Virus record (IMG/VR): IMGVR_UViG_3300021399_000116
Coordinates: 40,796 to 104,795 of that record
Length of the DNA: 64,000 nt
Strand: one strand, 5' to 3'
Origin: a virus
Taxonomy: Duplodnaviria; Heunggongvirae; Uroviricota; Caudoviricetes
Part shown: piece by piece, positions 11,285 to 56,374 of the stretch
Numbering within the stretch: the first letter of the stretch is position 1
How the letters are laid out: each line of letters starts with the position of its first letter
Notes under the pieces: model-generated
Told to the model about the DNA's origin: nothing
The model's database searches: none
Seen by the model: only the letters and a program-made list of their open reading frames with translations
Position numbers and translations under genes: made by a program

Positions 11285-11311
11285 CATATAATTATTAGAG
11301 GAGGAGTTAAA

Positions 11312-12535
11312 TTGAAAATCTCAGTTCAAAACTATCAAATAATTAAACAAGCAATGCTAGATTTTAACCCAGGACTTACTGTAATAGTAGGTCCCTCTAA
11401 TAATGGTAAGTCTAGTTTATTAAAAGCTCTAAAAGCTGCTATTTATACAGAAGGTGGGACTACACCTATAAGACATGGAGAAAATTCTTACATAGTAGGT
11501 ATACAGAATGATAAACATGTAGTAATATTTCAAAAGAAAGAAGGTTCTTCAAAATATATAGTAGATGGGCAAACATATTCTAAATTTGGTTTATCAACTC
11601 CAGAAGAAGTTTCTAATGCCTTAAATATAAAAGAACTAATTTTAAATGGAAACAAAGTTCAATTAAACTTCTGGAATCAAATGGATAAACCTTTTTTGTT
11701 AGACAAAAGCGCAGGAGAGCTTTTCAAATTTATTGTAGACTCTGGAGAAAATGACCAACTGTCTAATGTTTTAAAATCTATGGTTTCAGATAGACAACAA
11801 ATTAATAGAGATGCAGATACAGTTCAAGGAAGTATTTTATCATCAGAAGGTATGATAAAAGAACAAAATAATTTACTAGAAAAATCTGAAAAAAATTTAC
11901 CTTTAGCTGATAAAATAATAGATTTAAAAGGCAAACATGAAGAATATTCTAAATTAGTTGATTTTACAAATAAATGCAAAGAAAATGATTTAGAAATAGA
12001 AAGAATTAGACCTAAACTTCTAAAAGACTTAAATGAGTTTAATAGATATAATTCTTTGAATTATTTATCTGAAACTTCTATAAAACTTTCTACAGAAATT
12101 CAAAATATTTTAAAGAAGTTAGCAGAAGTAGATGATAGCATTTTTATTTCAAAAACTCTTTTAGATATAAATGAGAAGAAATCTAAATCTTTACAAAACA
12201 TAAAAGTAGAAGAAAGTAAAAATTTAAGACTTTTAGTTAGCAAATATAAAGAATATTTAGAAAAAGAAGAAAATGTCTCTCAAGTCAACCTGAAGTTACA
12301 GAAGGCAATTCCGAGTCAAACTATTATAGATACTTTAAGTATACTTATAGAGTTAGTTAAATTATTTGAAAATTTAAAATCAATTATAGAAAGCATTAAG
12401 AATGCAAAAAATAAAATAAAAGAAATAGAAAATGAAGAAAAAGAATTAGATAAAATTCAAAGTTTAATAAAAGTTTGTCCTTATTGCGGACAAAAGTTAG
12501 GAGGAAATCATGATACTACAGAACATAATAGCTAA
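11312..12535 (+). CDS. SbcC/Rad50-like ATPase, N-terminal piece (Walker A, coiled coil, CxxC hook)
   Basis: N-terminus GLTVIVGPSNNGKSSLLKALKAAIY is an SMC/RecF/SbcC-type Walker A. A long coiled coil follows, and the ORF ends with CPYCGQKLGG, a zinc-hook-like motif. Confidence 0.65.
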   Translation: MKISVQNYQIIKQAMLDFNPGLTVIVGPSNNGKSSLLKALKAAIYTEGGTTPIRHGENSYIVGIQNDKHVVIFQKKEGSSKYIVDGQTYSKFGLSTPEEVSNALNIKELILNGNKVQLNFWNQMDKPFLLDKSAGELFKFIVDSGENDQLSNVLKSMVSDRQQINRDADTVQGSILSSEGMIKEQNNLLEKSEKNLPLADKIIDLKGKHEEYSKLVDFTNKCKENDLEIERIRPKLLKDLNEFNRYNSLNYLSETSIKLSTEIQNILKKLAEVDDSIFISKTLLDINEKKSKSLQNIKVEESKNLRLLVSKYKEYLEKEENVSQVNLKLQKAIPSQTIIDTLSILIELVKLFENLKSIIESIKNAKNKIKEIENEEKELDKIQSLIKVCPYCGQKLGGNHDTTEHNS

Positions 12536-12812
12536 AGATGATAAAACGATAGAAGAAAAGTTTAACAATCTTTCAGCAGAACAACAAATAGAGTTGTTAA
12601 ATGAAATTCAATCTCAAAGAGATTCATTTAAAGAATCTAAGATTGTAGCAGAGACACAAATTAAATCTTTACAAGACTCAAGAGATAAAATATTAGAGAC
12701 ATTGAAGAAAGACTATAATTTAGATAGTATTGAAGCAGCTGAGAAGAAGATAGCTGAATTAAATGATGAGATAGTTTCAGCTCTTACTGAATTTGCTGAG
12801 TCTCAAACTTAA
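12510..12812 (+). CDS. Coiled-coil protein, possible middle piece of the split SbcC-like locus
   Basis: Own RBS AGGAGGA 7 nt before the ATG. It overlaps the upstream ORF by 26 nt and the downstream ORF by ATGA-type overlap. The 100-aa helical sequence is in a different frame from its neighbours. Confidence 0.35.
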   Translation: MILQNIIAKDDKTIEEKFNNLSAEQQIELLNEIQSQRDSFKESKIVAETQIKSLQDSRDKILETLKKDYNLDSIEAAEKKIAELNDEIVSALTEFAESQT

Positions 12813-13861
12813 TGTTTCTTTATGAAAATGAACAGAGTGAGTCTAGATTTAATAATCTTTCTCATCAAAAAATACAATTTGAGAAGAATAGTACTAAAAG
12901 TATGAAAAGATACTTAATAAAATGGATTAAATACACTAACAATTCTTCAGCCTTAAGAAGTTATATAGATGACTATATGAAAAAAGTGTCTAATGATTTA
13001 AAAGTTCCAGCTTTTAGTAGATGGTATAAATCTAGAAAATCAGAAGCCTGGTATTTAACTATATTTATAGGTGATAGAAAAAGAAAACTTAGACTAGCAA
13101 ATCATGATACTATAGATGATAGTGGTTTTGATGAATATCTATGGCTATACGAGTATAAAAGTATGAAAGGTGTATACAAAGGCATATTAAGATTTATAGA
13201 TAATTTTATTTTAGAATGGAGAAAAAGAGTGACTATTGATAATTTTGAAACATATTTTAATTTAGCACTTAAGAAAAGACAAGAGCATGAAACAATATTA
13301 CAAACAAAGAAAATGATGGAAGAGAGAAAATTGGAGTATGAAGAAAAACTAAAAGAGTTATTAAATACTCATAAAATATATGAAGACTCCATTGATTACT
13401 TAAAAGAAATCATAGAGTTAATAAGTAGACAACATATAGAACATATAGAGAAGTTACTAAATTCAGCGGTTAAAACTATTTTCTATGACAGAGATTATTC
13501 TATAAAGTTAGAGATAGCTGAGTTTAGAAATAGTAATTGTCTTAATATTCTTTTGATAGAAAACACAGATGAGGGAGAGATAATTACAGATATTAAAAAT
13601 AATGGCTTTGGAATACAGAGTATAGTTGGCTTTATTCTTCAAGTATATTTTATAATGTATCATAAACTAGAACCAATTCTATTTATGGATGAAGCAATGT
13701 CTACTCTAAGTAGTCAATATATTCCATATTTTAAAGAACTAGTAGATGCTCTTGCAAATCAATATAATTTTCATTTTGTATTAGTAGCTCATGATGTTCG
13801 TTTTATAGACATAGCAGATTATAAGTATGAAGTAAAAGATGGAGAAGTTAGAAAAGTATGA
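12812..13861 (+). CDS. SbcC/Rad50-like ATPase, C-terminal piece (signature-like, Walker B, D-loop)
   Basis: C-terminus NNGFGIQSIVGF...ILFMDEAMSTLSSQYIPYFKELVDALANQYNFHFVLVAHD matches the ABC/SMC signature, Walker B and H-loop. It is in the same frame as the 11312 ORF. Confidence 0.55.
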   Translation: MFLYENEQSESRFNNLSHQKIQFEKNSTKSMKRYLIKWIKYTNNSSALRSYIDDYMKKVSNDLKVPAFSRWYKSRKSEAWYLTIFIGDRKRKLRLANHDTIDDSGFDEYLWLYEYKSMKGVYKGILRFIDNFILEWRKRVTIDNFETYFNLALKKRQEHETILQTKKMMEERKLEYEEKLKELLNTHKIYEDSIDYLKEIIELISRQHIEHIEKLLNSAVKTIFYDRDYSIKLEIAEFRNSNCLNILLIENTDEGEIITDIKNNGFGIQSIVGFILQVYFIMYHKLEPILFMDEAMSTLSSQYIPYFKELVDALANQYNFHFVLVAHDVRFIDIADYKYEVKDGEVRKV

Positions 13862-14283
13862 AAAGAAGCTTAAATGAAATAAAGAAAGATAATTTTATGT
13901 ATCAGATTGAAAAGCAAATTTTATTATTACATATTGACTGTGATGTAGTAGCATCTCCTTGGGATTATGATAAGACTGTAGAGTGGTATAAAAAAGAGTA
14001 TGACACAGATGAGGTAGAAGTATCTTATGTAGATATAAAACATGAATGTATGTTAGAAGAATTGAGTGAAGATGACTCAGATTATGATACTCTTCAATAT
14101 TTATACTATTTAGATGATTTTAGAGAATTAATTAGAGGAGATATACATGAAAAGAAAGGAAACATAGTATTTTTTGACGGAGAATTACATAAATATGTAA
14201 CTTTTGAAGACTATTGTGATAGGTATTTAAAATCAGGAAGACTTATGAGTATACCTGAGGTAATAGCTAGCACTGAGATTTAG
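13858..14283 (+). CDS. Hypothetical acidic protein
   Basis: 141 aa with ATGA overlap onto the upstream gene. No motif recognised. Confidence 0.35.
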   Translation: MKRSLNEIKKDNFMYQIEKQILLLHIDCDVVASPWDYDKTVEWYKKEYDTDEVEVSYVDIKHECMLEELSEDDSDYDTLQYLYYLDDFRELIRGDIHEKKGNIVFFDGELHKYVTFEDYCDRYLKSGRLMSIPEVIASTEI

Positions 14284-14292
14284 GAGGAGAGT

Positions 14293-14997
14293 ATGATTTT
14301 ATTAGACCCTTGTATAGAAGTTGAATCTTTCAATGGAAAAGAAATAATGAAGAAATTAGAAAAAGCATGCAGAACATGTTATCGTTCTGAAGGAAATATT
14401 ACAGAAGATAGTTATAAAAATTTACTTAAGAATTGTATAAACAGAGGACATGAATCAGTGTTAGAGCATGAAAAAATTACAATAACAATGATTTGTGATA
14501 TTGGAGTATACAAAGATTTAACAAGACATAGATTAGCAAGTTATTCAATTGAAAGCACAAGATATTGTAACTATAGTAAAGATAAATTTGACAATCAAAT
14601 TAAATTTATAAAACCAATATTTTATAAAGACTGGAAAAATGAAGACTTAAATGAAGTAATTAAAGACAAAGATTTATACAAGTGTTATTTATGGGAAAAT
14701 TGTATGCAAAATATAGAGCAAGACTACAATGCAATGTCTGAAGTTGGAGCATTACCTGATGAAATGAGAATGCTACTTCCTCATAGTACAGCAGCTAAAG
14801 TTACAATGACAGCTAACATAAGAGAATGGAAACACATTTTATCACTAAGATGTAGTAATCACGCTCATCCAGCAATACAACAATTATTAATACCATTTTT
14901 ATTAAAACTTAAAGAAGAAATGCCTGAAATTTTTAATGATGTAGACTACAATGAAAATTTTCCAGAAGAAAAATATGCAAAATTAGTTATTTTATAG
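14293..14997 (+). CDS. thyX: Flavin-dependent thymidylate synthase ThyX
   Basis: LTRHRLASYSIESTRYCNY matches the ThyX RHRxxSxxxxSxRY signature. Length is 234 aa. Confidence 0.8.
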   Translation: MILLDPCIEVESFNGKEIMKKLEKACRTCYRSEGNITEDSYKNLLKNCINRGHESVLEHEKITITMICDIGVYKDLTRHRLASYSIESTRYCNYSKDKFDNQIKFIKPIFYKDWKNEDLNEVIKDKDLYKCYLWENCMQNIEQDYNAMSEVGALPDEMRMLLPHSTAAKVTMTANIREWKHILSLRCSNHAHPAIQQLLIPFLLKLKEEMPEIFNDVDYNENFPEEKYAKLVIL

Positions 14998-15007
14998 GAG
15001 GAATAAG

Positions 15008-15205
15008 ATGAAAGATAAATATAGATTCATATTATATCTTATAAGGTGGCAACTAAGTACTCCAATTTTAGCTTTATGTCTTAATCTACTACACTTTAAT
15101 ATTTTAGTGAATACTATAATAGCTAACTTAATTGGAGGTATAATATTTTATTGGGTAGACAAATATATTTTTAATAAGGAGAGAAAAAATGATAGAGAAG
15201 AATGA
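15008..15205 (+). CDS. Small membrane protein (hypothetical)
   Basis: 65 aa with RBS GGAGGAATAAG, hydrophobic. Confidence 0.3.
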   Translation: MKDKYRFILYLIRWQLSTPILALCLNLLHFNILVNTIIANLIGGIIFYWVDKYIFNKERKNDREE

Positions 15206-15401
15206 TTTAGAAAAACTAGCAACTTTAATTAGTGAAAAACTACCTGCAGGATATGGATTTTGTTTATTAACTTTTCCATTTTATAGAGAGGGAGACGAAA
15301 GATTACAATATGTATCTAGCGGAAGAAGAGATGATATAGTAAACGTTATGGAAGAATGGATAGAAAAAGTTAAAAATGAAAATTTTGGAAAGGATGTATA
15401 A
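15189..15401 (+). CDS. Hypothetical protein
   Basis: 70 aa, overlaps the upstream ORF. Confidence 0.3.
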   Translation: MIEKNDLEKLATLISEKLPAGYGFCLLTFPFYREGDERLQYVSSGRRDDIVNVMEEWIEKVKNENFGKDV

Positions 15402-15403
15402 TT

Positions 15404-16720
15404 ATGGAAGAAAAAATGAGTTATGATGAATGGTTAGACTCTAGAACTTACGAATACTTTATTGATTTAGAGAAAAAAAGACAGGATGAAAATATTGAAC
15501 TAATAGCAAGTGAGAATTTTCCAAGTGAAAGGATTCTAAATGCTGCAGGAAGTATACTCACAAATAAATACTCTGAAGGTTATCCTGGAAAGAGATATTA
15601 CGGAGGATGTTATCATATAGATGAAATAGAACAAAAAGCTATAAATGATGCTTGTAAATTATTTCATGCTAATTTTGCAAATGTACAACCTCATTGTGGA
15701 AGTTCAGCAAATCAAGCTGTATATAGAGCATTATTAGAACATGGAGACACAGTTTTAGGGATGGACTTAGGAGCTGGAGGACATTTAACACATGGACATA
15801 AGATGAGTTTTTCAGGACAAGACTATAACATAGTTTCTTATGGTGTAAATGAGGAAGGTTATATTGACTTAGAAGACTTTACTAAGAAGTTATATGAGTA
15901 TGAACCTAAGATGGTAATTGTAGGAGCTAGTTCATATTCTAGACTAATTGATTATGAAATATTTTTAAATATACTATATAACTTTGAGAAAGATAAAGGA
16001 TGGAGACCATATTATATGGTAGATATGGCACATGTTGCAGGACTAGTAGCTGGAGGAGTTCATCCTAATCCAGTAAATTATGCAGATGTAGTAACTTCTA
16101 CTACTCATAAAACATTAAGAGGACCTAGAGGTGGACTTATTCTTTGGAATAGTAATGAATTAACAAAAAAGATAAATTCTGCTGTATTTCCTGGAATACA
16201 AGGTGGTCCATTAGAGCATATTATTTGTGCAAAAGGAATATGTTTTGAAGAAGCAATGAGACCGGAATTTGAAAGATATGCTAATCAAGTAATAGCAAAT
16301 TCAAAAGTATTTGCTAATAAGTTTATAGAAAATGGGTGGAAAGTGGTTTCTAATGGAACTGATAATCACATGTTTGTTTTAAACGTTATGGACTCAATTG
16401 GATTAACAGGAAAAGAAGTAGAGACAGAATTAGATAAAATAAACATAACAGTAAATAAGAATCAAACTCCTAATGACCCATTACCTCCATTAAAATCTTC
16501 TGGAGTAAGAATTGGAACTGCAGCAATGACTACAAAAGGCTGGTTAGAAGAAGATTTTGAAGAATTAGCTCAGACTATAATGACTTTTCTAGATGAAGTT
16601 GCTATGGAAGCAAATGGAGAAGCTAGAGGAATCTCAGTAGATTATGATGAATATAAAGAAAGAGTAAAATCTCTTTCAAATAAAGTTAAAGAAAGAAATA
16701 ATCACAAAAAAGAGGTATAA
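15404..16720 (+). CDS. glyA: Serine hydroxymethyltransferase
   Basis: Near-textbook SHMT motifs: IELIASENF, YSEGYPGKRYYGGC, VQPHCGSSANQAV and the PLP-lysine segment VVTSTTHKTLRGPRGG. Confidence 0.95.
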   Translation: MEEKMSYDEWLDSRTYEYFIDLEKKRQDENIELIASENFPSERILNAAGSILTNKYSEGYPGKRYYGGCYHIDEIEQKAINDACKLFHANFANVQPHCGSSANQAVYRALLEHGDTVLGMDLGAGGHLTHGHKMSFSGQDYNIVSYGVNEEGYIDLEDFTKKLYEYEPKMVIVGASSYSRLIDYEIFLNILYNFEKDKGWRPYYMVDMAHVAGLVAGGVHPNPVNYADVVTSTTHKTLRGPRGGLILWNSNELTKKINSAVFPGIQGGPLEHIICAKGICFEEAMRPEFERYANQVIANSKVFANKFIENGWKVVSNGTDNHMFVLNVMDSIGLTGKEVETELDKINITVNKNQTPNDPLPPLKSSGVRIGTAAMTTKGWLEEDFEELAQTIMTFLDEVAMEANGEARGISVDYDEYKERVKSLSNKVKERNNHKKEV

Positions 16721-16722
16721 TA

Positions 16723-17403
16723 ATGAATAGAAATGATTTAAGAAGATTAGAAAAAGCAGCTAGAGAGAAAGATAAAAAGTATTTAGCCGAGTGGGCAGAT
16801 GATTTTGAAAATCAGTTAAGATATTTAATGAGAAAAGAGTATGAAGCTAGATATCAAGATGAAATAGAGAGTTCAATTGAAAACTTTTTATTAGCTACAG
16901 CTTATACTGCAGTGTTTAGTGAGTCAACTAATCTTCTTAAGTCTGGTAATCTTCCAGATTTTATGGAAGATTTATTTGTTACTATTGACTTATTTAGAAC
17001 TGGAGAGTATAAACCTAAAGAATATGAAGAAATATTAAAAGAAAATGGTTTTGAAATGGATAAAATGAAATATAAGCCTAGAGAACATAAAGTTATTACA
17101 CTGTGTGGAAGTACTAAATTCAAGGAAGATTTTCTAAGAAAGCAAGAAGAACTTACTCTAAAAGGTTATATTGTTTTATCTGTAGGTGTATTTGTTCATG
17201 ATGATAACATAGAGGTAACTGAAGAGCAAAAAGTAGAGTTAGATAAAATACATAAAGATAAAATAAGAATGTCTGATGCAATTTATGTAATAAATAAAGA
17301 TAATTACATAGGAGAGTCTACTAAATCAGAAATTGAATTTGCTAAAGAATTAAATAAAACAGTGATGTATATGGAGGAAGAGGAAAAGTATGGAAAGAAT
17401 TGA
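16723..17403 (+). CDS. Hypothetical protein with a C-terminal nucleoside 2-deoxyribosyltransferase-like (DUF4406-type) region
   Basis: C-terminal VITLCGSTKF...LTLKGYIVLSV...DAIYVINKDNYIGESTKSEIEFAKELNKTV fits the Rossmann pattern of the Ndt/DNPH1-like superfamily. Assignment is from memory of the family consensus only. Confidence 0.35.
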   Translation: MNRNDLRRLEKAAREKDKKYLAEWADDFENQLRYLMRKEYEARYQDEIESSIENFLLATAYTAVFSESTNLLKSGNLPDFMEDLFVTIDLFRTGEYKPKEYEEILKENGFEMDKMKYKPREHKVITLCGSTKFKEDFLRKQEELTLKGYIVLSVGVFVHDDNIEVTEEQKVELDKIHKDKIRMSDAIYVINKDNYIGESTKSEIEFAKELNKTVMYMEEEEKYGKN

Positions 17404-17869
17404 TAAAATAAACTACTACTTGAATATCGCTGAGTCTGTCTCAGAAAGAAGCACTTGTTTAAAGAAACATTGGGGTTCTATAATTGTTAAAAATGATGAA
17501 ATAATATCTACTGGCTTTAATGGAGCTCCTAGAGGAGTTAAAAGTTGCTTAGAATGTAATAAGTGTAATAGAGAAAATTCTGAAAGAGGTTCAGATTATA
17601 ATCAATGTTTGGCTGTACATTCAGAGCAAAATGCGATAATACATGCTAGTAGAAATCAAATGCTGGAATCAGACATGTACTTAGTAGGAGTAGATTTTAC
17701 AAATAACAATAAATATGTAGAAAACGCAGCTCCTTGCGCTTTATGCAAAAGAATGATAATAAATGCAGGCATTAAAAGAGTAATAGTTAGAGACAATAAA
17801 CTAGAGTATAGAACACTGAATGTAGATGACTGGGTAAAAGATTCTAATATTCTATTAGGAGGTTATTAA
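17390..17869 (+). CDS. dCMP deaminase (ComEB-type)
   Basis: The zinc-ligand motifs HSEQNAIIHA and PCALCKRMIINAGI are spaced as in the cytidine/dCMP deaminase fold. Confidence 0.85.
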   Translation: MERIDKINYYLNIAESVSERSTCLKKHWGSIIVKNDEIISTGFNGAPRGVKSCLECNKCNRENSERGSDYNQCLAVHSEQNAIIHASRNQMLESDMYLVGVDFTNNNKYVENAAPCALCKRMIINAGIKRVIVRDNKLEYRTLNVDDWVKDSNILLGGY

Positions 17870-17870
17870 A

Positions 17871-18182
17871 ATGGCTAAAGTAACTTATGAATTTAATGAG
17901 AGTGAAGAAGATAGAGACATAGAACTAGTAAATGCTAGATATAAGATGATAAATGCTTTAAATGAGTTACAGAATTTTAGAAGAAAACTATACAAAGGTT
18001 GGCTAAGTAGTGAAGATATGATAAATGTAAAAGATAATAAAGTTCTTACAAAAGAAGATTATGACAAGCTACATGAAGAAGGAAAACTATACTTTGAAGG
18101 CACTAAGAGATATATTAGTTATGATTATGTAGAACAGAAAATAGACTATATCCTTAATGATATATCATTTTTGATAGACTAA
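17871..18182 (+). CDS. Hypothetical protein
   Basis: 103 aa with RBS GGAGGTTATTAAA. Confidence 0.35.
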   Translation: MAKVTYEFNESEEDRDIELVNARYKMINALNELQNFRRKLYKGWLSSEDMINVKDNKVLTKEDYDKLHEEGKLYFEGTKRYISYDYVEQKIDYILNDISFLID

Positions 18183-18209
18183 TATACATTATATTAGGAG
18201 GTACAACTA

Positions 18210-18461
18210 ATGATTATAGATGCCGCGATTTTAAAAGATAGTACCATCTACTCAGGAAGAAGGCATTTTATTATTATAAATAATGCTGAAAAAGGATTTT
18301 TTGAAGAAAATAGTGTTCAAGGCTTTATCACAGACTCAGGAGAGTTCTTAGATAGAGAACAAGCTTTAGAACATGCATATAAGTGTAATCAAATTTCAAA
18401 GGCACTTTATAAAGAAAGAGTAAAATATAGTAAAGAATTATTCTCAGAAGATTTATGGTAA
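18210..18461 (+). CDS. Hypothetical protein
   Basis: 83 aa with RBS AGGAGGT. Confidence 0.35.
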   Translation: MIIDAAILKDSTIYSGRRHFIIINNAEKGFFEENSVQGFITDSGEFLDREQALEHAYKCNQISKALYKERVKYSKELFSEDLW

Positions 18462-18476
18462 TTTAGGAGGAAATAA

Positions 18477-19439
18477 GTGAAAGCTATTGATGAAAATTAT
18501 ATAATTGAAAGATATGAAGAAAATAATAAAACACCAGTATTTATAGATTTATCAAATGTTGCTTATAGAAGTGCGTTTGTATTTACTCCAGATAAATTTA
18601 AAACTTCACAAGGAATACCTAATGGTCATCTTTTTGGAGTTTGCCAAGTTATAAAAACTTTATTAAACTTAAATTATGAGGTATACTTATGCAGAGATTT
18701 ACAATCTAATTTTAGAAAGAAACTAAATGAAAACTATAAAGCAAATAGACAAACTGAAGATTCAGGAATCAGTGTTCATAGTTTATTAAATAGAGCAATA
18801 AATCCTTTAATAAGTGAACTTCAAAATGTACATGTACTATCTAAAACTAATTTTGAAGCTGACGACATAATGTTTTCAGCTTCAAAGTGCTGTAGTTACC
18901 ATAATATTAAATGTTGGATAATGTCTACAGATAAAGACTTGTGTCAAGCTTTAGACAATAATATATCTATAGCTCATAAATTTACTATTAAGGGTCCTCA
19001 AGAAATAGTTACTACAGAAAGTGAATATTATATAAAAAATTTTGGAGATATAGAACCTAGATGTTTACCACTTTATAGAGCATTTAAAGGAGATGCTTCA
19101 GATAATTTGGAGGCTCCTGTGAAAAGATTTCCGAAAGATTTGTTAGAAGAACTGTGTAAAGATTATGCAGATAAAAACTACTCAGATGAAATAGCAGTTC
19201 TTTTATTGAGTCATAAATGTAGTAAGAAATCACATGAAAAATGGATGAAACAACTAACTACTGATAGAGATATATTTATTCAACTGTATAATAACTATAG
19301 AATTATGAAATTAAATCCAATTCCGATAGAAGTAGAAGATGAACCTTTAGTAGAAAATGCATTTAATATAATAACAGACGAGTTTGAACTATGGGGATTC
19401 AAAAAGTTTGTGAAAGAATATAATTTAGGAGGTAACTAG
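18477..19439 (+). CDS. 5'-3' exonuclease / flap endonuclease (PIN-like, T4 RNase H / Pol I 5'-exo family)
   Basis: N-terminal VFIDLSNVAYRSAFVF matches LIDGNSLAYRAFFA. Acidic clusters fit a FEN-type metal site. 320 aa. Confidence 0.7.
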   Translation: MKAIDENYIIERYEENNKTPVFIDLSNVAYRSAFVFTPDKFKTSQGIPNGHLFGVCQVIKTLLNLNYEVYLCRDLQSNFRKKLNENYKANRQTEDSGISVHSLLNRAINPLISELQNVHVLSKTNFEADDIMFSASKCCSYHNIKCWIMSTDKDLCQALDNNISIAHKFTIKGPQEIVTTESEYYIKNFGDIEPRCLPLYRAFKGDASDNLEAPVKRFPKDLLEELCKDYADKNYSDEIAVLLLSHKCSKKSHEKWMKQLTTDRDIFIQLYNNYRIMKLNPIPIEVEDEPLVENAFNIITDEFELWGFKKFVKEYNLGGN

Positions 19440-19769
19440 ATGCACCAGAATGACTCAGAATTAAATAAAAATAATGAACAATGGAATTATATATCTGTAA
19501 TATTTGAAAATGTACATTATCCATTTGATTATCCGAAAGTACTAAATGATAGTTCTTTTAGAAATGAAATTTATGGAAGAGCTATAAAATACACTTATAA
19601 AGTTAAAGACGGAAAGATTCCTAATTTGGTAGAGGGTAGAATACTTTCAATAAATAATAGGGATAGAATTTCTAGAGTTTTAGTAACTAATATAGGACTA
19701 AAAGAATCAGATATAACTTTTCCTATAGATAAAATTAAAGAACTTCCATTGTATAAAGGAGAGAAATAA
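19440..19769 (+). CDS. Hypothetical protein
   Basis: 109 aa. Confidence 0.3.
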   Translation: MHQNDSELNKNNEQWNYISVIFENVHYPFDYPKVLNDSSFRNEIYGRAIKYTYKVKDGKIPNLVEGRILSINNRDRISRVLVTNIGLKESDITFPIDKIKELPLYKGEK

Positions 19770-20059
19770 TGTATATTCAAACAAAGTATAATATAGGAGA
19801 TAGAATTTGGGTAGTTTATGAACAAATGCTTTACACTGAACATTACAGAGGTCCAGCTGGAGAAGTTACAGTATATTCAACAAAAATAGTAGATATATTA
19901 TTCCCTAAAAGTGGGAAAATAGAGTACGGAACAGACACAGAAGGAGGAGATTCTATCTTAGAAGAAGATATAATTTTGTATGATGATTTAGATTTATTAG
20001 CTAAAAGAGTAAAAGAATTGGATGATAAAATAAGAAAAAGAGAGGAGAATGAGGAATGA
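19769..20059 (+). CDS. Hypothetical protein
   Basis: 96 aa, ATGA overlap downstream. Confidence 0.3.
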   Translation: MYIQTKYNIGDRIWVVYEQMLYTEHYRGPAGEVTVYSTKIVDILFPKSGKIEYGTDTEGGDSILEEDIILYDDLDLLAKRVKELDDKIRKREENEE

Positions 20060-21090: not shown

Positions 21091-21404
21091 CACTTCAAAA
21101 CTTGAAAGATGAAATTACTGAAAAAGGTGAAATTCCTATGTATGGTATGAAATTTAGACTTCTAGATGATGATTTAGTTAGGATTTTTATTTCTAATAAT
21201 AAATTTGAAATGAGATATGATAAATTTGTAGGTACATCAGACCTAGGTTTTTCAACTAATATTATGAAGACAGAGTTAACTAAATTAACTATAGAGAAAG
21301 ATGAAAAACTTCCTCATAAGATGATTTTAGTAATTGATTTAAGACCTAAGAAAAAGAAGAAAGTAATTGATACAGGAATAAATGCAAGAATGAAATTAAA
21401 TTGA
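21087..21404 (+). CDS. Hypothetical protein
   Basis: 105 aa. Confidence 0.3.
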   Translation: MTLQNLKDEITEKGEIPMYGMKFRLLDDDLVRIFISNNKFEMRYDKFVGTSDLGFSTNIMKTELTKLTIEKDEKLPHKMILVIDLRPKKKKKVIDTGINARMKLN

Positions 21405-21418
21405 TTGGAGGTAATATT

Positions 21419-22585
21419 ATGAAAGCTTTGGCAATGTATATATTTTGTGGAAGCTTAGGAATAGGAATAATGCAAGCAGGTTTTAAGATAGATAAAGTAT
21501 TAGAAATAACTGATGAAATGTTGGAAGAAAATTCTAAACACTTTATTCATAACTATCCAGATATTCCCGTAATAAAGCCTTCATTATGGAATAATACTAT
21601 TTATAAGAATGAATTATTCAAAGAAAATTATGATTTATTAGCAGGTAATCCACCTTGTTCTGGACTATCTCAAATAAATAGACATGCTTCTTCAGACAAT
21701 CTTACAAATCAATATATGTATAATTTTATAGATACAGTATCTTATGTACAACCTAAAACATTCCTAATGGAGAATGCTCCAACTTTAATTAGTAGAGGCA
21801 AAGTAATTTTAGACTATATGGTATCAATTCTTAGCAGTGATTACTACATATACATAATAAGAGACTATGCTGGAAATCATAAAGTTCCAATGAAAAGACA
21901 AAGAACAATAGTACTTGGTTTTAGGAAAAATTTCTTTGAAGGAGTTCCAGTCTTAAAAGATTATGAAGAAGTTACAGGTGAAATTACTGCTGGTGAAGTT
22001 TTATCAGAGATTTCTGAAAATTCTCCTAATATGTATTTAGAAGAGAATAGAAGTTGTAAAGATTTAGAGAAATATTTAGAATATATACAAGTAAATAAGT
22101 CAATAATGCATTCTTTATCAGAATTTTCTGAAGATTTCATAAATAATTTAGATATATCTGAAAAAAGAAAGAAAAATATTTTAACTTTAAAAAGAAAGAT
22201 GAATGCTGGTAAAGGAGTATTTGATAAAACACCGTTTAAACTTGATAAAAATTTGGTAGCTCCTAGTATGACATCTTTATCAGAATTTATAAATCCAGTA
22301 TATGACAGACATTTATACATAAGAGAATATGCAAAACTTATGGGATATCCAGATGATTTTGAATTTGTAAAAGATGCAAAAGTTCCATACATTCAGTCTA
22401 TAGCTCAGGGAGTTCCGGTGAATTTTGCAAAATGGGCAGCTATGAATGTAAAAGATGCTCTAGAGAAGAAGTCTAAATTTTTAAAAGACATAGATATTGT
22501 AGTAGAAAATAGATGTAATCCTAAGAAGATAAAAACAATGTTTTATTCTAAGGAGAAATTTTTCAATACTGATAATATATGCTAA
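21419..22585 (+). CDS. DNA (cytosine-5)-methyltransferase-like protein
   Basis: The track begins at 21401, but RBS GGAGGT precedes the ATG at 21419. Motif I-like MYIFCGSLGIG, motif IV NPPCSGLS (PC catalytic Cys) and ENAP (ENV-like). Confidence 0.65.
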   Translation: MKALAMYIFCGSLGIGIMQAGFKIDKVLEITDEMLEENSKHFIHNYPDIPVIKPSLWNNTIYKNELFKENYDLLAGNPPCSGLSQINRHASSDNLTNQYMYNFIDTVSYVQPKTFLMENAPTLISRGKVILDYMVSILSSDYYIYIIRDYAGNHKVPMKRQRTIVLGFRKNFFEGVPVLKDYEEVTGEITAGEVLSEISENSPNMYLEENRSCKDLEKYLEYIQVNKSIMHSLSEFSEDFINNLDISEKRKKNILTLKRKMNAGKGVFDKTPFKLDKNLVAPSMTSLSEFINPVYDRHLYIREYAKLMGYPDDFEFVKDAKVPYIQSIAQGVPVNFAKWAAMNVKDALEKKSKFLKDIDIVVENRCNPKKIKTMFYSKEKFFNTDNIC

Positions 22586-22628
22586 AAGCATATTATTATA
22601 TATAAAATATTTAAAAGGAGGAACCATT

Positions 22629-22907
22629 ATGGATAAAATGGGAAAAACAGAATTTATTGATGCTGTTGCTAACAGAGCAGGAGTTACAAAGAAAGATACT
22701 TATGCAGTATATGAAGCAATAGTTTCAGAAATTACTGAACAATTAGCTAACAGAAGAAAGGTTTCACTAGTTGGTTTTGGTAACTTTGAAGTAAGACATA
22801 GAAGCGCTAGACGCGGTGTAAATCCAACAACTAAAGAGAAAATAGATATTCCTGAGAAGGATGTTCCTAAATTTAGCTTTAGCTCAGCTATAAAGAACTC
22901 AATCTAA
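22629..22907 (+). CDS. hup: HU/IHF-family DNA-binding protein
   Basis: 92 aa. TEFIDAVANRAGVTKKDT...LVGFGNFEVRHRSARRGVNPTTKEKIDIPEKDVPKFSFSSAIK aligns along its whole length with bacterial HU. Confidence 0.9.
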   Translation: MDKMGKTEFIDAVANRAGVTKKDTYAVYEAIVSEITEQLANRRKVSLVGFGNFEVRHRSARRGVNPTTKEKIDIPEKDVPKFSFSSAIKNSI

Positions 22908-22924
22908 TTTAGAGAAAATTCAAG

Positions 22925-27584: not shown

Positions 27585-28088
27585 ATGATAGTTTGTTTAG
27601 AAGGACCAGATGGCTCAGGAAAAAGTACTTTAGTAAGATATCTTCAAGAAAAATATAATATGAAAATGAAACATTCAAGTTCTGAAACTAAAAATGATTT
27701 TCAATATCATTTAGATTTATTAGAAGAAGACAATGTAGTCTTAGATAGAGCTAATCTTGGAGAAATAGTATATCCAGAAGTATATGGTAGAAATCCTAAA
27801 ATGACTTGGGATAATCAAATAGATTTTATGAATGCTTGCATGGACAAAGGTGTAATTTATATAATCTTTTACGCATCAGACTTTAATACTTTAAAAGAAA
27901 GATTATTTAAAAGAGGAGATACTCAACAAGTGCTAGAAAATGCAGAGAAAATAAATTTAGTATTTAAAACTTTAGCACACATGTTTTCAGAACTTTATCC
28001 TAATGTGTATGCATTAGATATTTCTAAGGAGTCAGACCAGATTAAATTTTTCGAAGATATTTTAAAGGAGAAAACAGATGGAGAATGA
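27585..28088 (+). CDS. Deoxynucleoside monophosphate kinase (thymidylate kinase-like P-loop kinase)
   Basis: MIVCLEGPDGSGKST is the Tmk/dNMP-kinase P-loop. 167 aa, sitting in the nucleotide-metabolism cluster. Confidence 0.6.
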   Translation: MIVCLEGPDGSGKSTLVRYLQEKYNMKMKHSSSETKNDFQYHLDLLEEDNVVLDRANLGEIVYPEVYGRNPKMTWDNQIDFMNACMDKGVIYIIFYASDFNTLKERLFKRGDTQQVLENAEKINLVFKTLAHMFSELYPNVYALDISKESDQIKFFEDILKEKTDGE

Positions 28089-28317
28089 GTTTTATGAACA
28101 TTTAGTAATTTCTGGGAGAGATGAGAATTTTCAAAACGATTTAACTAAAGCTTCTATAGCAGGTTGGGAAACAGTTCATATAAATTCTTTTCCAGTAGAA
28201 AAGCCAGATATGCTAAAACATGGCTATACTATAGAATTAATCTATACAGCAGTTTTAAGAAGATTAAGAAGCAGAGAGGAGTTAAAAGATGATAACAGAA
28301 AACTTGAAACAACATAG
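28078..28317 (+). CDS. Hypothetical protein
   Basis: 79 aa overlapping both neighbours. Confidence 0.3.
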   Translation: MENEFYEHLVISGRDENFQNDLTKASIAGWETVHINSFPVEKPDMLKHGYTIELIYTAVLRRLRSREELKDDNRKLETT

Positions 28318-29302
28318 AGAAGAACAGTGGACAGAACAATATTATAAAGAATCAAAAGAAATAATACAAAATAAAGATATACTTCCGATTGTTGTTCCAT
28401 CGTATAGAAGAGGATATGCTGCTTCTACTTTACAGGCTTTGAAAGATTTTCCTGAGTTAAAAGTAGTAGTATTTATATATGAAGAAGAGTTTGATTTATA
28501 TAGACATTTATTTGAAACATATCCTCATATACAATATCAACTATGCTCAGGATTTAGAGGAATTGCTCCTAAAAGAAAGTATATTACTGAAAGAATGGTA
28601 CAATTAGGAATGCCAGAATTTTTTGAGATAGATGATGATGCAACAGCATTTTTCTATACAAAACATGGTAGTATGAAAAAAGACCCTACAAAGTACAAAG
28701 CAGAGAAGACCCAGATTGACATACAAGACTTTTTCAGAATGTTCCAATATATTATTAAATATAAAGCGCTAGAAAAAATAGACTTATGCGGAATAATTTT
28801 TGATAACGGAGCTTGGGCTCAAGATTTAAGAACTTTACCTGATATTATTTATATCGGCGGACAAGCTTTTTGCTTTTATTTAGATGCAAAGGCTTGCTTA
28901 GACAAAGGATTGAACTATTATGTAGAAGATAAAATTTGGGAAGATTTTGATTTTTCAATGCAAGTAATAAATGCAGGGTTAAACTCTTGTCAAATAAGAT
29001 ATTTAACTGCTTCTACACCTACTATGACTCCCGGAGATTCAGTCGCTACTGCAGCTGGTTCACCTTGGGCACAGAAATCAGTAAATCTATATAAAAGATG
29101 GGGAGACTTGATTAGGTTTAAACCTATGAAGGGTGAGTTGAATGCTAAAATAAAATGGACTACTATTAGAAATCAACTTAAGAAAGACGGTCATTTAACT
29201 ATCACTTATAATCCAGTTTATATGGAGTTTATAAATAGAAATGATTATGATGGATTAACACATTATATAGAACAAGAAAAGAATAAAAATGAGGAGGTAT
29301 AA
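28289..29302 (+). CDS. Putative GT-A fold glycosyltransferase
   Basis: LPIVVPSYRRGYAASTLQAL resembles the GT2 N-terminal motif (IIPxYN), and EIDDDA is a DxD-like motif. The gene is adjacent to the dCMP hydroxymethylase. Assignment is weak. Confidence 0.4.
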   Translation: MITENLKQHREEQWTEQYYKESKEIIQNKDILPIVVPSYRRGYAASTLQALKDFPELKVVVFIYEEEFDLYRHLFETYPHIQYQLCSGFRGIAPKRKYITERMVQLGMPEFFEIDDDATAFFYTKHGSMKKDPTKYKAEKTQIDIQDFFRMFQYIIKYKALEKIDLCGIIFDNGAWAQDLRTLPDIIYIGGQAFCFYLDAKACLDKGLNYYVEDKIWEDFDFSMQVINAGLNSCQIRYLTASTPTMTPGDSVATAAGSPWAQKSVNLYKRWGDLIRFKPMKGELNAKIKWTTIRNQLKKDGHLTITYNPVYMEFINRNDYDGLTHYIEQEKNKNEEV

Positions 29303-42829: not shown

Positions 42830-43219
42830 ATGAAGAAGATAGTTACAGATAATACTACAATTTTTGTAAATCATATTAAATTTATACGAATTATGGAAGC
42901 TGGAGTAAGTCAAACTAAAGAGAAAAGATATACAGTAACAGCAGTTTTAGAAGATTGTACTGATATAGATATTGATAATATAAATTGCATAATATTAAAT
43001 TATGATGAAAACGGAGAGTTACAGAAAACTAGAGAAGAAGCTCAATTATTTAAAGATTTTTTAGAAAGAAAACTAGATAATCAATGGGAGACTATATTTA
43101 CTTTAGATGTATTAAAAGAAGTAAATGACTATATAAACTATAGTAAACAAGAGCATAAATCTACGATGGTAGATATTAGTAAATTAAAATTAAATGAAAA
43201 AGGAGAAGTTGTACGATGA
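42830..43219 (+). CDS. Hypothetical protein
   Basis: 129 aa with RBS AGGAGGA. Confidence 0.4.
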   Translation: MKKIVTDNTTIFVNHIKFIRIMEAGVSQTKEKRYTVTAVLEDCTDIDIDNINCIILNYDENGELQKTREEAQLFKDFLERKLDNQWETIFTLDVLKEVNDYINYSKQEHKSTMVDISKLKLNEKGEVVR

Positions 43220-44589
43220 AGATTTTATCAGAAAGAGACCCTTTAGAAGTATTTTCAGAAGCTTCTAAAATATTAAACAATGCAGTAGAGCATACTTTAG
43301 GTCCGGATGGAACTAATACTGCAGTTCACTTTCAAAATTTTTACAACATAATAAACGATGGAAAATCTATAGTAGAGCAATTAACATCTTTAGACCCAGA
43401 AATAGCTCCTGCTATGGAAACTTTAAAGCAATCAGCTTTTGAAACTAATAGAAAAGCAGGAGATGGAACTACAAGTACTATAATTATAATGAACCAACTA
43501 ATACAAGGAGCTAAAAAATACTTAGAAGAAAATCCTAAGAAAAGTCAAGTACAAGTAGCTAAAAGAATTTTAGATGTAGAAAAAAGATTACAAGATTTAA
43601 TTCTAAAGCAAAAAATAGAGATAGATAATAAATTATATGAGAAAGTCGCTAAAGTGTCTCTAGGGTCATCCTCATATTCACAGATGCTATCAGAAGCTTT
43701 TACTTTTTTGAATGGAGAAGGAGTTCCAGCTTTAGTTAAATCAGACATACCCGGAGTAGAATTAGAAAAGATAGATGGAGTAAATCTAACTAAAACTAGT
43801 GTGGTAAGCTCAATGTTTATAGATTTATTACCTAGTAAAGAACTTAAAGATGTTCAAGTTATTACTTTATTTCAAGTAATAGATAGATTTGAAGAAATGT
43901 TTCAACTAGTAAAATTGTTAAATCAAAATAAAGAAAAATATACAGTCTTATTATATAATGAAATAAGTTCTTCAGCTTTAGAAAATTTATTGTTTAATCT
44001 TTCACAAGATAAAAGTAAGATAGTTCCTATATGTATGAAAGACTATGGAAAAGACATGAATAATATGTTAGATGAAATAGCTAAATATACTGAAACAGAG
44101 ATTATAGATGGAGGAAGCTTAAAAACTACAGATATTTCTAAGATAAAAATAGGAAAAGTAGATAAGGCTATACTTTCTCAAAATTCTTTAGTTTTAATCA
44201 AAGATGAAGTTCCAGAGTTTGAGTATAAACTTATTTCTAGAAAAGCTTGTTTGATTAGAGCAGGAGGAGCTACTAAAATAGACATGGAAGACACTTATAG
44301 AAGACTAGAAGATGCTATTTATTCTCTTGCAGGAGCTATTAAAAACGGAGCATTTTTTGGTGGCTATGGTGTACCTTATAGAAGCTTAGCAGATGATGTA
44401 GATGATGTAGATGTTCCTAAGTTTATAGTAGACTCTCTAAAGTACATAAATCTTAGTATTTTTGATGAAAATGCAGACTCAGATGCAGTAGACTCTGCTT
44501 TAGTAATTTCAGAGGTAATTCGTAATTCTTTCTTTACTGCAGCACAAGTAATTACTACAAATGCACTAATCTATGACAATATAAGATAA
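43216..44589 (+). CDS. Chaperonin Cpn60/GroEL-family homologue (short, 457 aa)
   Basis: ASKILNNAVEHTLGPDGTNTAV...DGKSIVEQL...AGDGTTSTIIIMNQLIQGAKKYL is collinear with the GroEL equatorial domain (VKVTLGPKGRNVVL...DGVTVAKEI...AGDGTTTATVLAQAI), including the GDGTT nucleotide-binding loop. Confidence 0.75.
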   Translation: MKILSERDPLEVFSEASKILNNAVEHTLGPDGTNTAVHFQNFYNIINDGKSIVEQLTSLDPEIAPAMETLKQSAFETNRKAGDGTTSTIIIMNQLIQGAKKYLEENPKKSQVQVAKRILDVEKRLQDLILKQKIEIDNKLYEKVAKVSLGSSSYSQMLSEAFTFLNGEGVPALVKSDIPGVELEKIDGVNLTKTSVVSSMFIDLLPSKELKDVQVITLFQVIDRFEEMFQLVKLLNQNKEKYTVLLYNEISSSALENLLFNLSQDKSKIVPICMKDYGKDMNNMLDEIAKYTETEIIDGGSLKTTDISKIKIGKVDKAILSQNSLVLIKDEVPEFEYKLISRKACLIRAGGATKIDMEDTYRRLEDAIYSLAGAIKNGAFFGGYGVPYRSLADDVDDVDVPKFIVDSLKYINLSIFDENADSDAVDSALVISEVIRNSFFTAAQVITTNALIYDNIR

Positions 44590-54602: not shown

Positions 54603-55343
54603 ATGATACAAATGCTTGGTAGTTCTAGACTACTTAATAAGGCTATTCAAGAGAATGTTAATTCTACGAATACTAATAGAATTATAGAACTATATGGTAT
54701 AAGTTCTATTGATGAATTGACTGATGTTCCATTATTAGTTAAATCTTCTGTATCTGGCACAAGTGCTACTACTTATATTGAGATAACTAGCAGCGGAACA
54801 ACTATAGATACAGTAGAACTTAATGTTTATAACAATGGTGCAATAGATGTACCATTTTCAAACTGGGTTATAGCAAACCAATTGTACTTTTTAGTATATG
54901 ATTTTGATAATAGTTGCTTTAACGCTTTTCCAGTAGGTAGCGGAGAATCAGCTGCTCCCCCTCCTAGTACTTTAATGGCCTTATCAGATGATATCTTGAC
55001 TTTAACAAATTCTTCTACAGCTTCTGAGATTGAAACAGCCTTTGGAGATGTTGACAGTGAAGAGACTTTTATGGATTGGGTTAGCAGTATGTCTGGTCAA
55101 TTAGTTATTTTTGATTTAGATTATAGTATTGTAAATTATATAACAATAAATAACTATAGAATGTCTAGTGATGGACTACACTACTCAATTTATTTTAATA
55201 CTTATAATGTTAATAGCAACAATACTTTAGAATTAGTTTACAAAGTTATGACTTTTAATAAAACTGCAACTGCTGATACTATATTTAGTTCAGTATCAGT
55301 GAAAGAAACTACTATATCTGATGGAAATGGGGTGGCATACTAA
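54603..55343 (+). CDS. Hypothetical protein
   Basis: 246 aa. Confidence 0.35.
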   Translation: MIQMLGSSRLLNKAIQENVNSTNTNRIIELYGISSIDELTDVPLLVKSSVSGTSATTYIEITSSGTTIDTVELNVYNNGAIDVPFSNWVIANQLYFLVYDFDNSCFNAFPVGSGESAAPPPSTLMALSDDILTLTNSSTASEIETAFGDVDSEETFMDWVSSMSGQLVIFDLDYSIVNYITINNYRMSSDGLHYSIYFNTYNVNSNNTLELVYKVMTFNKTATADTIFSSVSVKETTISDGNGVAY

Positions 55344-56374
55344 TGGGACAAGTTTATGTAGATGAAAATAGTTTAAGTTCAATAGGAAATGCAATCAGAA
55401 ACATAACTAACACAACTAATAATTTTTATCCTAATCAAATGGGACCAGCTATAGAAAATATCAGTATGGGTCCAGAAATTACAGATGCTAGTTACTTATT
55501 TTATCATGGAGCTAGAATGTCTCAGTATATAGATTTAATAAACTGTATATCTCCTAATGTACATTACACTTCAGAAATGTTTTCAGGACTTAATTTTTCA
55601 AATTACCCATTTGAAATCCCTATTTTTAATACAAGTAATGTAGTACAAGCTTCCAATATGTTTTTTAATTATATAATGCTAAGAAATGCTCCTGCATTTA
55701 ATTTTAGCAGTCTTACACAGGCTCAATATATGTTTTCTAACTGTACTAACTTAACAGATATTCCTAATTTTACTACTAGTGATAGGTTACAAAATTTGTG
55801 CGGTATTTTTAGATATTGTTATAGTATGACGAATACCAGTAATATAAGTTATTGGAATACAGAAAATGTTACTAACATAGACCAGATGTTTCTATTTTGT
55901 AATCACATATCAACAATTAATGATTTGAATTTCCCTAAAGTTACTAATTTAAGAACTTTTTGTGGTGGTTGTCATTCACTTGTTTCATTAAATAATTGCA
56001 ATTTTAGTAATGCACAGAACTTGTGGCAATCTTTTAGTCAGTGCTGGAATTTACAAGCTATACCAGAAATTCATTCAGACAATATTATTAATATGTGTGA
56101 AGCCTTTGTAAGTTGTTCTAATTTAACAGAAGTTATACAATATAATACTTTAAAAGTAAAAGATATGTGTAGAACTTTTCAGTTCTGTAATAATTTAAGT
56201 AATGCAAGTATACAGAATATAATTAATATGTGTTTAAATAGTAATATAACAACTGCTAGTTATAAAAATCTAACAGTTAATAATGGTAATAGCCCACTTT
56301 ATCAGACTAAATTTAATAATTCATACTATCAAGATAGATGGCAAGAACTTACAGATGCTGGTTGGACATATTAG
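55343..56374 (+). CDS. BspA-type leucine-rich repeat (LRR_5) protein
   Basis: Tandem ~23-aa repeats of the pattern NxxxMFxxCxxLxxIP (for example FSNCTNLTDIPNFTTS, FLFCNHISTINDLNF, FVSCSNLTEVIQYN). The last 20 codons are nearly identical at DNA level to 63940-64000. Confidence 0.55.
   Translation: MGQVYVDENSLSSIGNAIRNITNTTNNFYPNQMGPAIENISMGPEITDASYLFYHGARMSQYIDLINCISPNVHYTSEMFSGLNFSNYPFEIPIFNTSNVVQASNMFFNYIMLRNAPAFNFSSLTQAQYMFSNCTNLTDIPNFTTSDRLQNLCGIFRYCYSMTNTSNISYWNTENVTNIDQMFLFCNHISTINDLNFPKVTNLRTFCGGCHSLVSLNNCNFSNAQNLWQSFSQCWNLQAIPEIHSDNIINMCEAFVSCSNLTEVIQYNTLKVKDMCRTFQFCNNLSNASIQNIINMCLNSNITTASYKNLTVNNGNSPLYQTKFNNSYYQDRWQELTDAGWTY

Follow-up and report, generated by a model that had tools for sequence, protein, structure and literature searches.

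A phage-encoded serine hydroxymethyltransferase within a conserved pyrimidine deoxynucleotide gene block of a gut phage that probably modifies its cytosine

Results

Gene content and layout of the locus

The current study concerns a 64,000-nucleotide stretch (positions 40,796 to 104,795 of the IMG/VR record IMGVR_UViG_3300021399_000116), hereafter referred to as the window, from the ~132-kb genome of a myovirus-like phage of a gut metagenome. Within its replication/recombination module lies a block of four genes encoding a flavin-dependent thymidylate synthase (ThyX), a serine hydroxymethyltransferase (SHMT), a 226-amino acid (aa) protein, and a dCMP deaminase (Table 1). A first-pass annotation made from the sequence had already placed these four open reading frames (ORFs) at these positions on the + strand, and both the coordinates and the gene identities proved to be correct. 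The genes of the block are tightly packed on one strand, being separated by 2–10 nt or else overlapping, and a Shine-Dalgarno-like sequence precedes every start, that of thyX being strong (TAGGAGGAG). The 226-aa ORF, referred to here as ORF16723 after its first position, runs 14 nt into the deaminase gene. At 0.292, the block has nearly the same GC content as the window (0.291), which excludes a foreign insert or assembly chimera and indicates that these genes belong natively to the phage genome. Two small ORFs are located between the ThyX and SHMT genes, the first of which gave no significant match in family searches.

The window as a whole is AT-rich (GC 0.29), has every gene on the + strand, and exhibits numerous phage hallmarks, including a T4-like portal, a baseplate/lysozyme module, a RecA/UvsX-like recombinase, SbcC/SbcD-like proteins, a clamp loader, a sigma factor, and a GroEL-like protein. 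The 10 kb upstream of the window contain structural genes only (tail, baseplate). An identical copy of ORF16723 and its neighborhood is present on a 131,896-bp gut-type metagenome contig from the European Nucleotide Archive (ENA). A megablast search with window positions 12000–32000 yielded no match among 50,697 phage records, and the phage therefore has no close cultured relative among them. A promoter and terminator scan of positions 11000–20000 was uninformative, as promoter-like sites were fewer than in shuffled controls and the sole + strand terminator-like match falls within ORF16723.

Table 1. Positions of the genes, domains and other features in the window and the matches by which they were assigned.
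Feature	Coordinates	Strand	Evidence
ThyX	14293..14997	+	PF02511 E=4e-41; TIGR02170 equivalog 111 bits (cut-off 87.9); motif RHRLASYSIESTR
65-aa hydrophobic small ORF	15008..15205	+	Gene call also present on the ENA contig
70-aa small ORF	15189..15401	+	phrog_35296 (unknown function) E=8.5e-6
SHMT	15404..16720	+	PF00464 E=1.5e-143, 478.6 bits (cut-off 27), profile positions 11-399 of 399; NF000586 529.9 bits (cut-off 335); E. coli GlyA alignment
226-aa two-domain ORF (ORF16723)	16723..17403	+	
N-terminal helical domain (aa 1-118) of ORF16723	16723..17076	+	Matches no known fold
C-terminal domain (aa ~122-220) of ORF16723	17086..17382	+	Nucleoside 2-deoxyribosyltransferase / DNPH1 / MilB-like fold
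dCMP deaminase (dCMP to dUMP)	17390..17869	+	PF00383 E=5.6e-16, 58.7 bits (cut-off 25); phrog_174 dCMP deaminase E=8.6e-35; zinc-binding motifs H-x-E as VHSEQNA and P-C-x-x-C as PCALC
C5-cytosine DNA methyltransferase	21401..22585	+	PF00145 E=3.8e-27; dcm superfamily
dNMP/thymidylate-kinase-like P-loop kinase, candidate hm-dCMP kinase	27585..28088	+	PF02223, PF13238; TIGR00041 under cut-off
TAGT-family DNA glycosyltransferase	28289..29302	+	PF20691 E=7.1e-12; phrog_842 beta-glucosyl-HMC-alpha-glucosyltransferase E=2.2e-19
Tad2-like / DUF2829 protein	29305..29649	+	PF11195 E=2.9e-21; abuts hydroxymethylase gene
T4 gp42-type dCMP hydroxymethylase (dCH)	29650..30348	+	PDB 1b49 E=1e-54
Trimeric-type dUTPase	30757..31209	+	PF00692 E=9.1e-18; TIGR00576 105.4 bits (cut-off 102.55)
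SPFH/flotillin protein	31259..32752	+	
tRNA-Thr(UGU)	34077..34151		Rfam; ARAGORN
tRNA match	34597..34660		Rfam (47 bits)
GroEL/Cpn60-like chaperonin	43216..44589	+	
DUF285 ('Mycoplasma') repeat protein	55343..56374	+	
Kelch-repeat protein	59713..61101	+	

The SHMT and its neighbors in the block

Judged by its sequence, the window gene is a full-length and intact SHMT. Its product shares 56% identity with E. coli GlyA (1dfo), and a residue-by-residue alignment of the two retains the lysine that binds pyridoxal phosphate (K236, corresponding to E. coli K229) in the motif TTHKTLRGPRGG. The active-site motifs TTHK, GGHLTHG, RYYGG, VDMAHVAGL, and SG[VI]R[VI]GT are all present and their columns are invariant across 20 phage homologues, an alignment that contains ~190 invariant columns in total. 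Homologues of 65–89% identity are intact on many 100–135-kb contigs, and such conservation over 30% divergence is indicative of purifying selection.

A phage SHMT is uncommon, as the first-pass annotation had supposed: tblastn detects the gene in 50 of 50,697 GenBank phage records, and among 2.9 million IMG/VR contigs scanned, at least 566 carry a relative. Rare as it is, a phage SHMT is not new. The enzyme has been on record since 2006 as ORF008c of Aeromonas phage 44RR2.8t (Nolan et al., PMC1524935), it is annotated in Biquartavirus genomes, and PHROG 9968 includes it under the name "methyltransferase". Acquisition of the gene from a Clostridia host had been raised as a question as well. Since the SHMT is as distant from those of two Clostridia metagenome-assembled genomes (MAGs; 54–55% identity) as it is from E. 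coli GlyA, a recent origin from Clostridia is not supported. A donor search in GTDB was uninformative, as it relied upon query-specific peptides and returned three loci only. The best of these, L090, is 67% identical to the SHMT and has ThyX beside it, although this locus could itself be of phage origin within a MAG, and the cluster names carry only "Bacilli bacterium" MAG labels. Outside of the phage clade described below, viral SHMTs fall into at least three groups that are ~50–60% identical among themselves and to cellular enzymes.

The ThyX protein contains the ThyX motif RHRxxSxxxxSxR in the form shown in Table 1. An intein is found in the ThyX of several relatives (L005 6391-7983, L091 10209-11855, L177 2986-4584, and L181 708-2306), and sister contigs having the same neighbor genes encode an intein-free ThyX. 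The deaminase scored far below the cut-offs of both the ComEB and the anti-phage dCTP deaminase models of NCBIfam.

A hydroxymethylase cassette in the same window

Farther downstream, the window encodes a T4 gp42-type dCMP hydroxymethylase (dCH), the same enzyme to which the first-pass annotation had linked the SHMT block. Its alignment to 1b49 upholds that assignment, since the equivalents of Cys148, Asp145, Asp179, Ser94, and Tyr96 are all conserved, while the surrounding segments read HDFICT vs SDFMCT and YDNDWAF vs FRNDYAW and the segment INSNYGW is identical. In gp42, Cys148 is the nucleophile, Asp145 lies three residues upstream of it, Asp179 specifies cytosine, and Ser94 and Tyr96 form a pair (PMC6400193). 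Homologues of the candidate kinase at 27585 adjoin dCH-type genes in IMG/VR loci. Taken together, the run of dCH, dNMP-kinase-like, TAGT glycosyltransferase, and dUTPase genes is the set that a phage with glycosylated 5-hydroxymethylcytosine (hmC) would encode, and cytosine in this phage DNA is probably replaced by (glycosylated) hmC. The longest contigs bearing homologues of dCH and of SHMT are equal in size (132,507 and 52,786 bp), which suggests that both genes reside on the same contigs.

The Tad2-like gene of this cassette stops one base short of the dCH start codon. The same domain occurs directly after the SHMT gene in the related locus L093 (9272-9532) and is fused to the SHMT C-terminus in L094 (8001-9533; P0240, 510 aa). 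This recurrent link to folate-dependent enzymes is contrary to what would be expected of an anti-Thoeris sponge.

Conservation of the block and SHMT neighborhoods in other viruses

The block is conserved with a shuffled gene order in a clade of ~110–135-kb phages. In L091, the order is SHMT, HAD, DUF1599, ThyX, a 70-aa ORF equal in length to the one that lies downstream of ThyX in the window, the ORF16723 homologue, and deaminase. L103 encodes SHMT, ThyX, a protein consisting of the ORF16723 N-terminal domain, and deaminase, while L093 encodes SHMT, the Tad2-like protein, the ORF16723 homologue, and deaminase. L094 has the SHMT::Tad2-like fusion, the ORF16723 homologue, a PF00227 proteasome-like gene (10128-10709), and deaminase. 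In the larger relatives L004 (183 kb) and L005 (213 kb), the order is FolD, ThyX, and the ORF16723 homologue, with FolD (6115-7023 and 5498-6394, respectively) occupying the SHMT position upstream of ThyX. FolD is a bifunctional methylene-tetrahydrofolate dehydrogenase/cyclohydrolase and is an alternative route to methylene-tetrahydrofolate.

Neighborhoods were counted for the best 81 IMG/VR SHMT loci. In 31 of the 81, a gene for ThyA, ThyX, a dCH-type enzyme, dCMP deaminase, or dUTPase is found within 10 kb and in most cases directly adjoins SHMT; L162, for example, exhibits a row of dCH-type, SHMT, and dCMP deaminase genes. A second viral SHMT lineage (54–61% identity) comprises L104–L111 on IMG/VR contigs of 60–127 kb and has a dUTPase gene immediately beside SHMT in 7 of 8 loci, the dUTPase of L110 being located 4 kb away. 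A third, apparently aquatic lineage (~52%) encodes a canonical ThyA directly upstream of SHMT in L136, L139, L140, and L151.

A two-domain protein with a DNPH1-like fold

The 226-aa protein has >1000 homologues, none of which carries a Pfam assignment, and it yielded no match in PHROG, NCBIfam, or PADLOC. As no PADLOC defense model matches, a TIR-like role in defense or anti-defense is not indicated. The protein is composed of two modules, each of which also occurs as a stand-alone protein, with conservation being higher in the N-terminal helical domain. The C-terminal domain adopts the flavodoxin-like fold of the nucleoside 2-deoxyribosyltransferase (NDT), DNPH1, and MilB type, which confirms the fold that the first-pass annotation had proposed. 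In canonical C-terminal domains, T126, C128-G129-S130, H178, K181, and N191 are invariant and E203 is nearly so. The CGS tripeptide is that of the DNPH1 segment LYFCGSIRGG (the DNPH1 sequence being checked against PDB), while E203 pairs with the DNPH1 nucleophile E104 in the sole, low-confidence hhalign segment and by secondary structure anchoring done by eye. The domain is not a member of the curated families PF05014, PF15891, or PF14359, and its sole Pfam match is DUF4406, at 18–20.4 bits (cut-off 22) in 12 of 27 members.

Stand-alone C-terminal domains gave 361 IMG/VR matches and are ~60% identical among copies. In the 80 loci over which neighbors were counted, these include NrdD/G, bona fide NDT, a xanthine/uracil permease, dUTPase, dNMP kinase, and a SAM methyltransferase. 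In 10 of the 80, the stand-alone domain lies directly upstream of an Asp-type, cytosine-specific hydroxymethylase of the thymidylate synthase (TS) family, an arrangement that resembles the MilA/MilB gene pair. Such TS-family enzymes with the Asp signature are found beside the domain in L013, L018, L021, L026, L036, L050, L067, and L083 (at about 10000-11200) as well as in L062 and L082, and the pairs are flanked by genes for dNMP kinase, SAM methyltransferase, and dUTPase. These loci look like a distinct, uncharacterized cytosine-modification cassette.

Discussion

It is evident from the gene identities, the conservation of catalytic motifs, and the synteny that this phage encodes a set of folate-dependent and pyrimidine-handling enzymes, from which we infer that the genes are expressed, that their products are active, and that the phage DNA is modified. 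Three reactions are central to what follows. SHMT converts serine and tetrahydrofolate (THF) to glycine and 5,10-methylene-THF, ThyX converts dUMP and methylene-THF to dTMP and THF, and dCH converts dCMP, methylene-THF, and water to 5-hydroxymethyl-dCMP (hm-dCMP) and THF. It is likely, in our estimation, that SHMT, ThyX, dCH, and the deaminase form a phage-encoded pyrimidine deoxynucleotide supply unit in which SHMT recharges folate, serving a virus that probably contains hmC. dCMP would be divided between two fates, one being hydroxymethylation to hm-dCMP by the gp42-type enzyme and the other being deamination to dUMP, which ThyX would then convert to dTMP. Both ThyX and dCH would draw upon 5,10-methylene-THF and release THF rather than dihydrofolate (DHF), and the phage SHMT, together with serine, would regenerate the cofactor in a two-step folate loop that is independent of dihydrofolate reductase (DHFR). 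SHMT would presumably act as a flux booster, i.e., as an auxiliary rather than an essential gene.

The logic of such a supply line, which the first-pass annotation had already outlined, agrees with the literature. The ThyX reaction gives THF, not DHF, and most organisms that rely upon ThyX lack DHFR (PMC6294363), while dCH likewise gives THF, which SHMT turns back into methylene-THF (PMC6400193). As both enzymes return THF, SHMT alone can close the folate loop. The genomic evidence is in accordance with this as well, given that no DHFR or ThyA gene was detected in the window, that the clustering is kept in relatives, that FolD, another source of methylene-THF, takes the SHMT position in larger ones, and that SHMT adjoins pyrimidine enzymes in unrelated viral lineages. 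If cytosine were fully replaced and thymine made de novo, one folate-carried carbon would be needed per base pair, which for a genome of ~132 kb would amount to ~132,000 folate-carried carbons per genome copy. Should the proposal be correct, the phage would supply the carbon-adding enzymes for both pyrimidines as well as the enzyme that reloads the folate, the infected cell would need to provide just serine and THF independently of DHFR, and the virus would carry every part of a cofactor-recycling loop for DNA hypermodification. The recurring neighborhood of SHMT, ThyX/ThyA, dCH, and dCMP deaminase in unrelated viruses would be accounted for as well.

Many of these features are reminiscent of known systems. 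The T4 pathway for hmC and dNTP synthesis consists of gp42 dCH, cd deaminase, gp1 dNMP kinase, td ThyA, frd DHFR, gp56 dCTPase, and alpha- and beta-glucosyltransferases. Like T4, the current phage encodes a gp42-type dCH with identical catalytic signatures, a dCMP deaminase, a dNMP-kinase-like gene, a DNA glycosyltransferase, and a dUTPase-family enzyme. Unlike T4, it encodes ThyX in place of ThyA with no DHFR seen in the 64-kb window, its glycosyltransferase is of the TAGT type, its dUTPase is trimeric whereas T4 gp56 is an all-alpha enzyme, and it has its own SHMT whereas T4 relies upon that of its host. The Aeromonas T4-like phages (44RR2.8t ORF008c, phage 31, Biquartavirus; PHROG 9968) are similar in that they are large myoviruses encoding both a full-length SHMT and dCH. 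However, their SHMTs are 51% identical to that of the current phage, a level no higher than that of either protein with E. coli GlyA, which implies independent acquisition, and the gene adjoins the topoisomerase gene gp60 rather than a ThyX/deaminase block or other nucleotide enzymes. A ThyX-SHMT cycle in which THF is returned and SHMT alone closes the cycle is also found in ThyX-dependent bacteria such as Helicobacter pylori (PMC6294363), the difference being that here it is virus-borne and shared with dCH as a second THF-returning enzyme. Overall, the current phage provides another example of a phage SHMT coupled to the synthesis of thymidylate and hydroxymethylcytosine rather than a system of a new kind. 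The observation of SHMT alone is a modest one, considering the Aeromonas phage precedent from 2006 and its dispensability in one sister lineage. What is added here is the proposed DHFR-free ThyX/dCH/SHMT loop, its conservation throughout the clade, where FolD can stand in for SHMT, the loss of SHMT in a sister lineage, and a large uncharacterized family of DNPH1-like proteins.

A number of observations weigh against the supply unit. The search in which neither DHFR nor ThyA turned up covered the annotated ORFs of 64 of ~132 kb in addition to the 10 kb of upstream structural genes, and either gene could be located elsewhere in the genome. The window also encodes a C5-cytosine DNA methyltransferase, which would be without a substrate in phage DNA if cytosine were fully replaced by hmC. 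The gene is kept in the relatives L002, L093, and L094, and it may target host DNA, reflect partial modification, or have some other activity. Furthermore, L093 and L094 have no ThyX within 8 kb of SHMT, and 50 of the best 81 SHMT loci lack a gene of the thymidylate synthase type, a deaminase, or a dUTPase within 10 kb, as do 23 of the 46 that are at least 15 kb in length. Such neighborhoods are what one would expect if SHMT were a general auxiliary metabolic gene, serving glycine/serine interconversion or the whole one-carbon pool, with its adjacency to ThyX being incidental; beyond pyrimidines, this pool also supplies purines, fMet, and methionine. The SHMT of L092, which resides amid unrelated genes and N6/N4 methyltransferases, favors this explanation, as does the topoisomerase neighbor of the Aeromonas gene. 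Nevertheless, in the clade of the current phage SHMT is always found within the ThyX/ORF16723/dCMP deaminase block, a ThyA, ThyX, dCH, deaminase, or dUTPase gene directly adjoins SHMT in several unrelated lineages, and even the SHMT-bearing Aeromonas phages encode dCH. For these reasons, we consider a purely general role unlikely.

A further challenge arises from the P0017 sublineage (L003 4572-6786; L176–L180), in which tblastn shows that SHMT is broken, with three 1-nt frameshifts along with a stop codon in the GGHLTHG motif. Identical breaks are present in five independent metagenome assemblies, with or without insertion of an HNH/NUMOD homing endonuclease. A group I intron was considered for the split L003 gene, and Rfam detected none at E<=0.01; the frameshifts and the stop within the motif show that the gene is not interrupted by an intron but has become a pseudogene. 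The sublineage keeps ThyX and an ORF16723 homologue, and where the deaminase would be expected there is only a 69-aa DUF7695 ORF. Its longest contig, of 118,664 bp, is shared with a dCH homologue. Since these phages have no working SHMT and yet retain ThyX and dCH, the host enzyme can suffice, and SHMT is a dispensable booster rather than a required component. It could be argued from this that SHMT is a passenger or a decaying gene that contributes little in the current phage as well. The first-pass annotation had named pseudogenization in related phages as a finding that would count against its proposal; it has indeed occurred in one sublineage, although the window gene is full length with all of its catalytic motifs, many homologues are likewise intact, and the ~190 invariant columns speak of continued selection. 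Accordingly, we regard a passenger role as even less likely than a general metabolic one and favor the pyrimidine supply unit, with SHMT as its auxiliary component.

The part of the block that is still uncharacterized is the DNPH1-like neighbor gene. Based upon its fold, the conserved CGS and Glu, the 14-nt overlap with the deaminase gene, and the neighborhoods of its C-terminal domain, we infer that the 226-aa protein is most likely a nucleotide-handling accessory protein. DNPH1 is a 5-hydroxymethyl-dUMP N-hydrolase and MilB a hydroxymethyl-CMP N-glycosidase, and our best single guess, albeit a tentative one, is that the 226-aa protein could be a dNMP N-glycosidase of this type acting on a (hydroxymethyl)pyrimidine nucleotide. 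It would remove an unwanted pyrimidine dNMP, such as hm-dUMP arising from the action of the deaminase on hm-dCMP. The invariant Cys-Gly-Ser loop identical to that of DNPH1, the near-invariant Glu that appears to lie at the helix start where the nucleophile of DNPH1, NDT, and MilB sits, and the ~60% identity among stand-alone copies are all as would be expected for such an enzyme. Conversely, the C-terminal domain differs from these enzymes in its lack of any significant sequence or profile match, in its apparent catalytic residues, and in its fusion to a novel helical domain. Its profile matched no PDB sequence, hhalign gave probabilities of 1.8% for human DNPH1 and 0.6% for 15 phage NDTs, and residue-level alignment by all four approaches (PDB profile, Pfam, hhalign with DNPH1, hhalign with NDTs) was insignificant. 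Read by eye, the catalytic Tyr24 and Asp80 of DNPH1 are replaced by Thr (T126) and His/Lys (H178/K181), and in one degenerate subclade the CGS motif has been lost, sometimes along with the Glu. An obligate pairing of the stand-alone domain with a deaminase was likewise rejected, since a deaminase gene is missing from the surrounding 10 kb in all 10 loci where the domain adjoins dCH.

These departures could equally signify that the protein is not a hydrolase. It may instead bind nucleotides as a regulatory or scaffold subunit of the ThyX/deaminase/SHMT machinery, in keeping with the better conservation of the N-terminal domain, its occurrence as a stand-alone protein, and its retention without the C-terminal domain beside the deaminase in L099, L100, and L103. 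A base-swapping deoxyribosyltransferase is conceivable too, a bona fide NDT being located beside the stand-alone C-terminal domain in 15 of the 80 loci. A non-catalytic nucleotide-binding or scaffold role and a dNMP N-glycosidase are about equally likely, and the non-hydrolase explanations as a whole are similarly possible without being probable. The earlier idea that the product depletes a canonical nucleotide is pure conjecture, being neither supported nor excluded by these results. A more ambitious version of the N-glycosidase hypothesis would have the ORF16723 family represent an unrecognized viral dNMP N-hydrolase that polices the hydroxymethylpyrimidine pool, a phage counterpart of human DNPH1 that completes a DHFR-free one-carbon-to-DNA pathway (ThyX/dCH with SHMT or FolD) with a proofreading step; we think this improbable in its entirety. 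Whichever role applies, the family is abundant, unannotated, and found in the nucleotide metabolism clusters of many large phages, and it may represent a new nucleotide-sanitizing enzyme.

Other features of the window

Beyond the genes considered above, the window contains two tRNA matches in Rfam, of which ARAGORN called only the first, as tRNA-Thr(UGU); the second match is weaker and may be a degenerate or unusual tRNA. Other genes encode a GroEL/Cpn60-like chaperonin, an SPFH/flotillin protein, a Kelch-repeat protein, and a DUF285 repeat protein. The latter hints at a low-GC Bacillota/Mollicutes-like host, consistent with related contigs being labeled "Bacilli bacterium" in MAGs.

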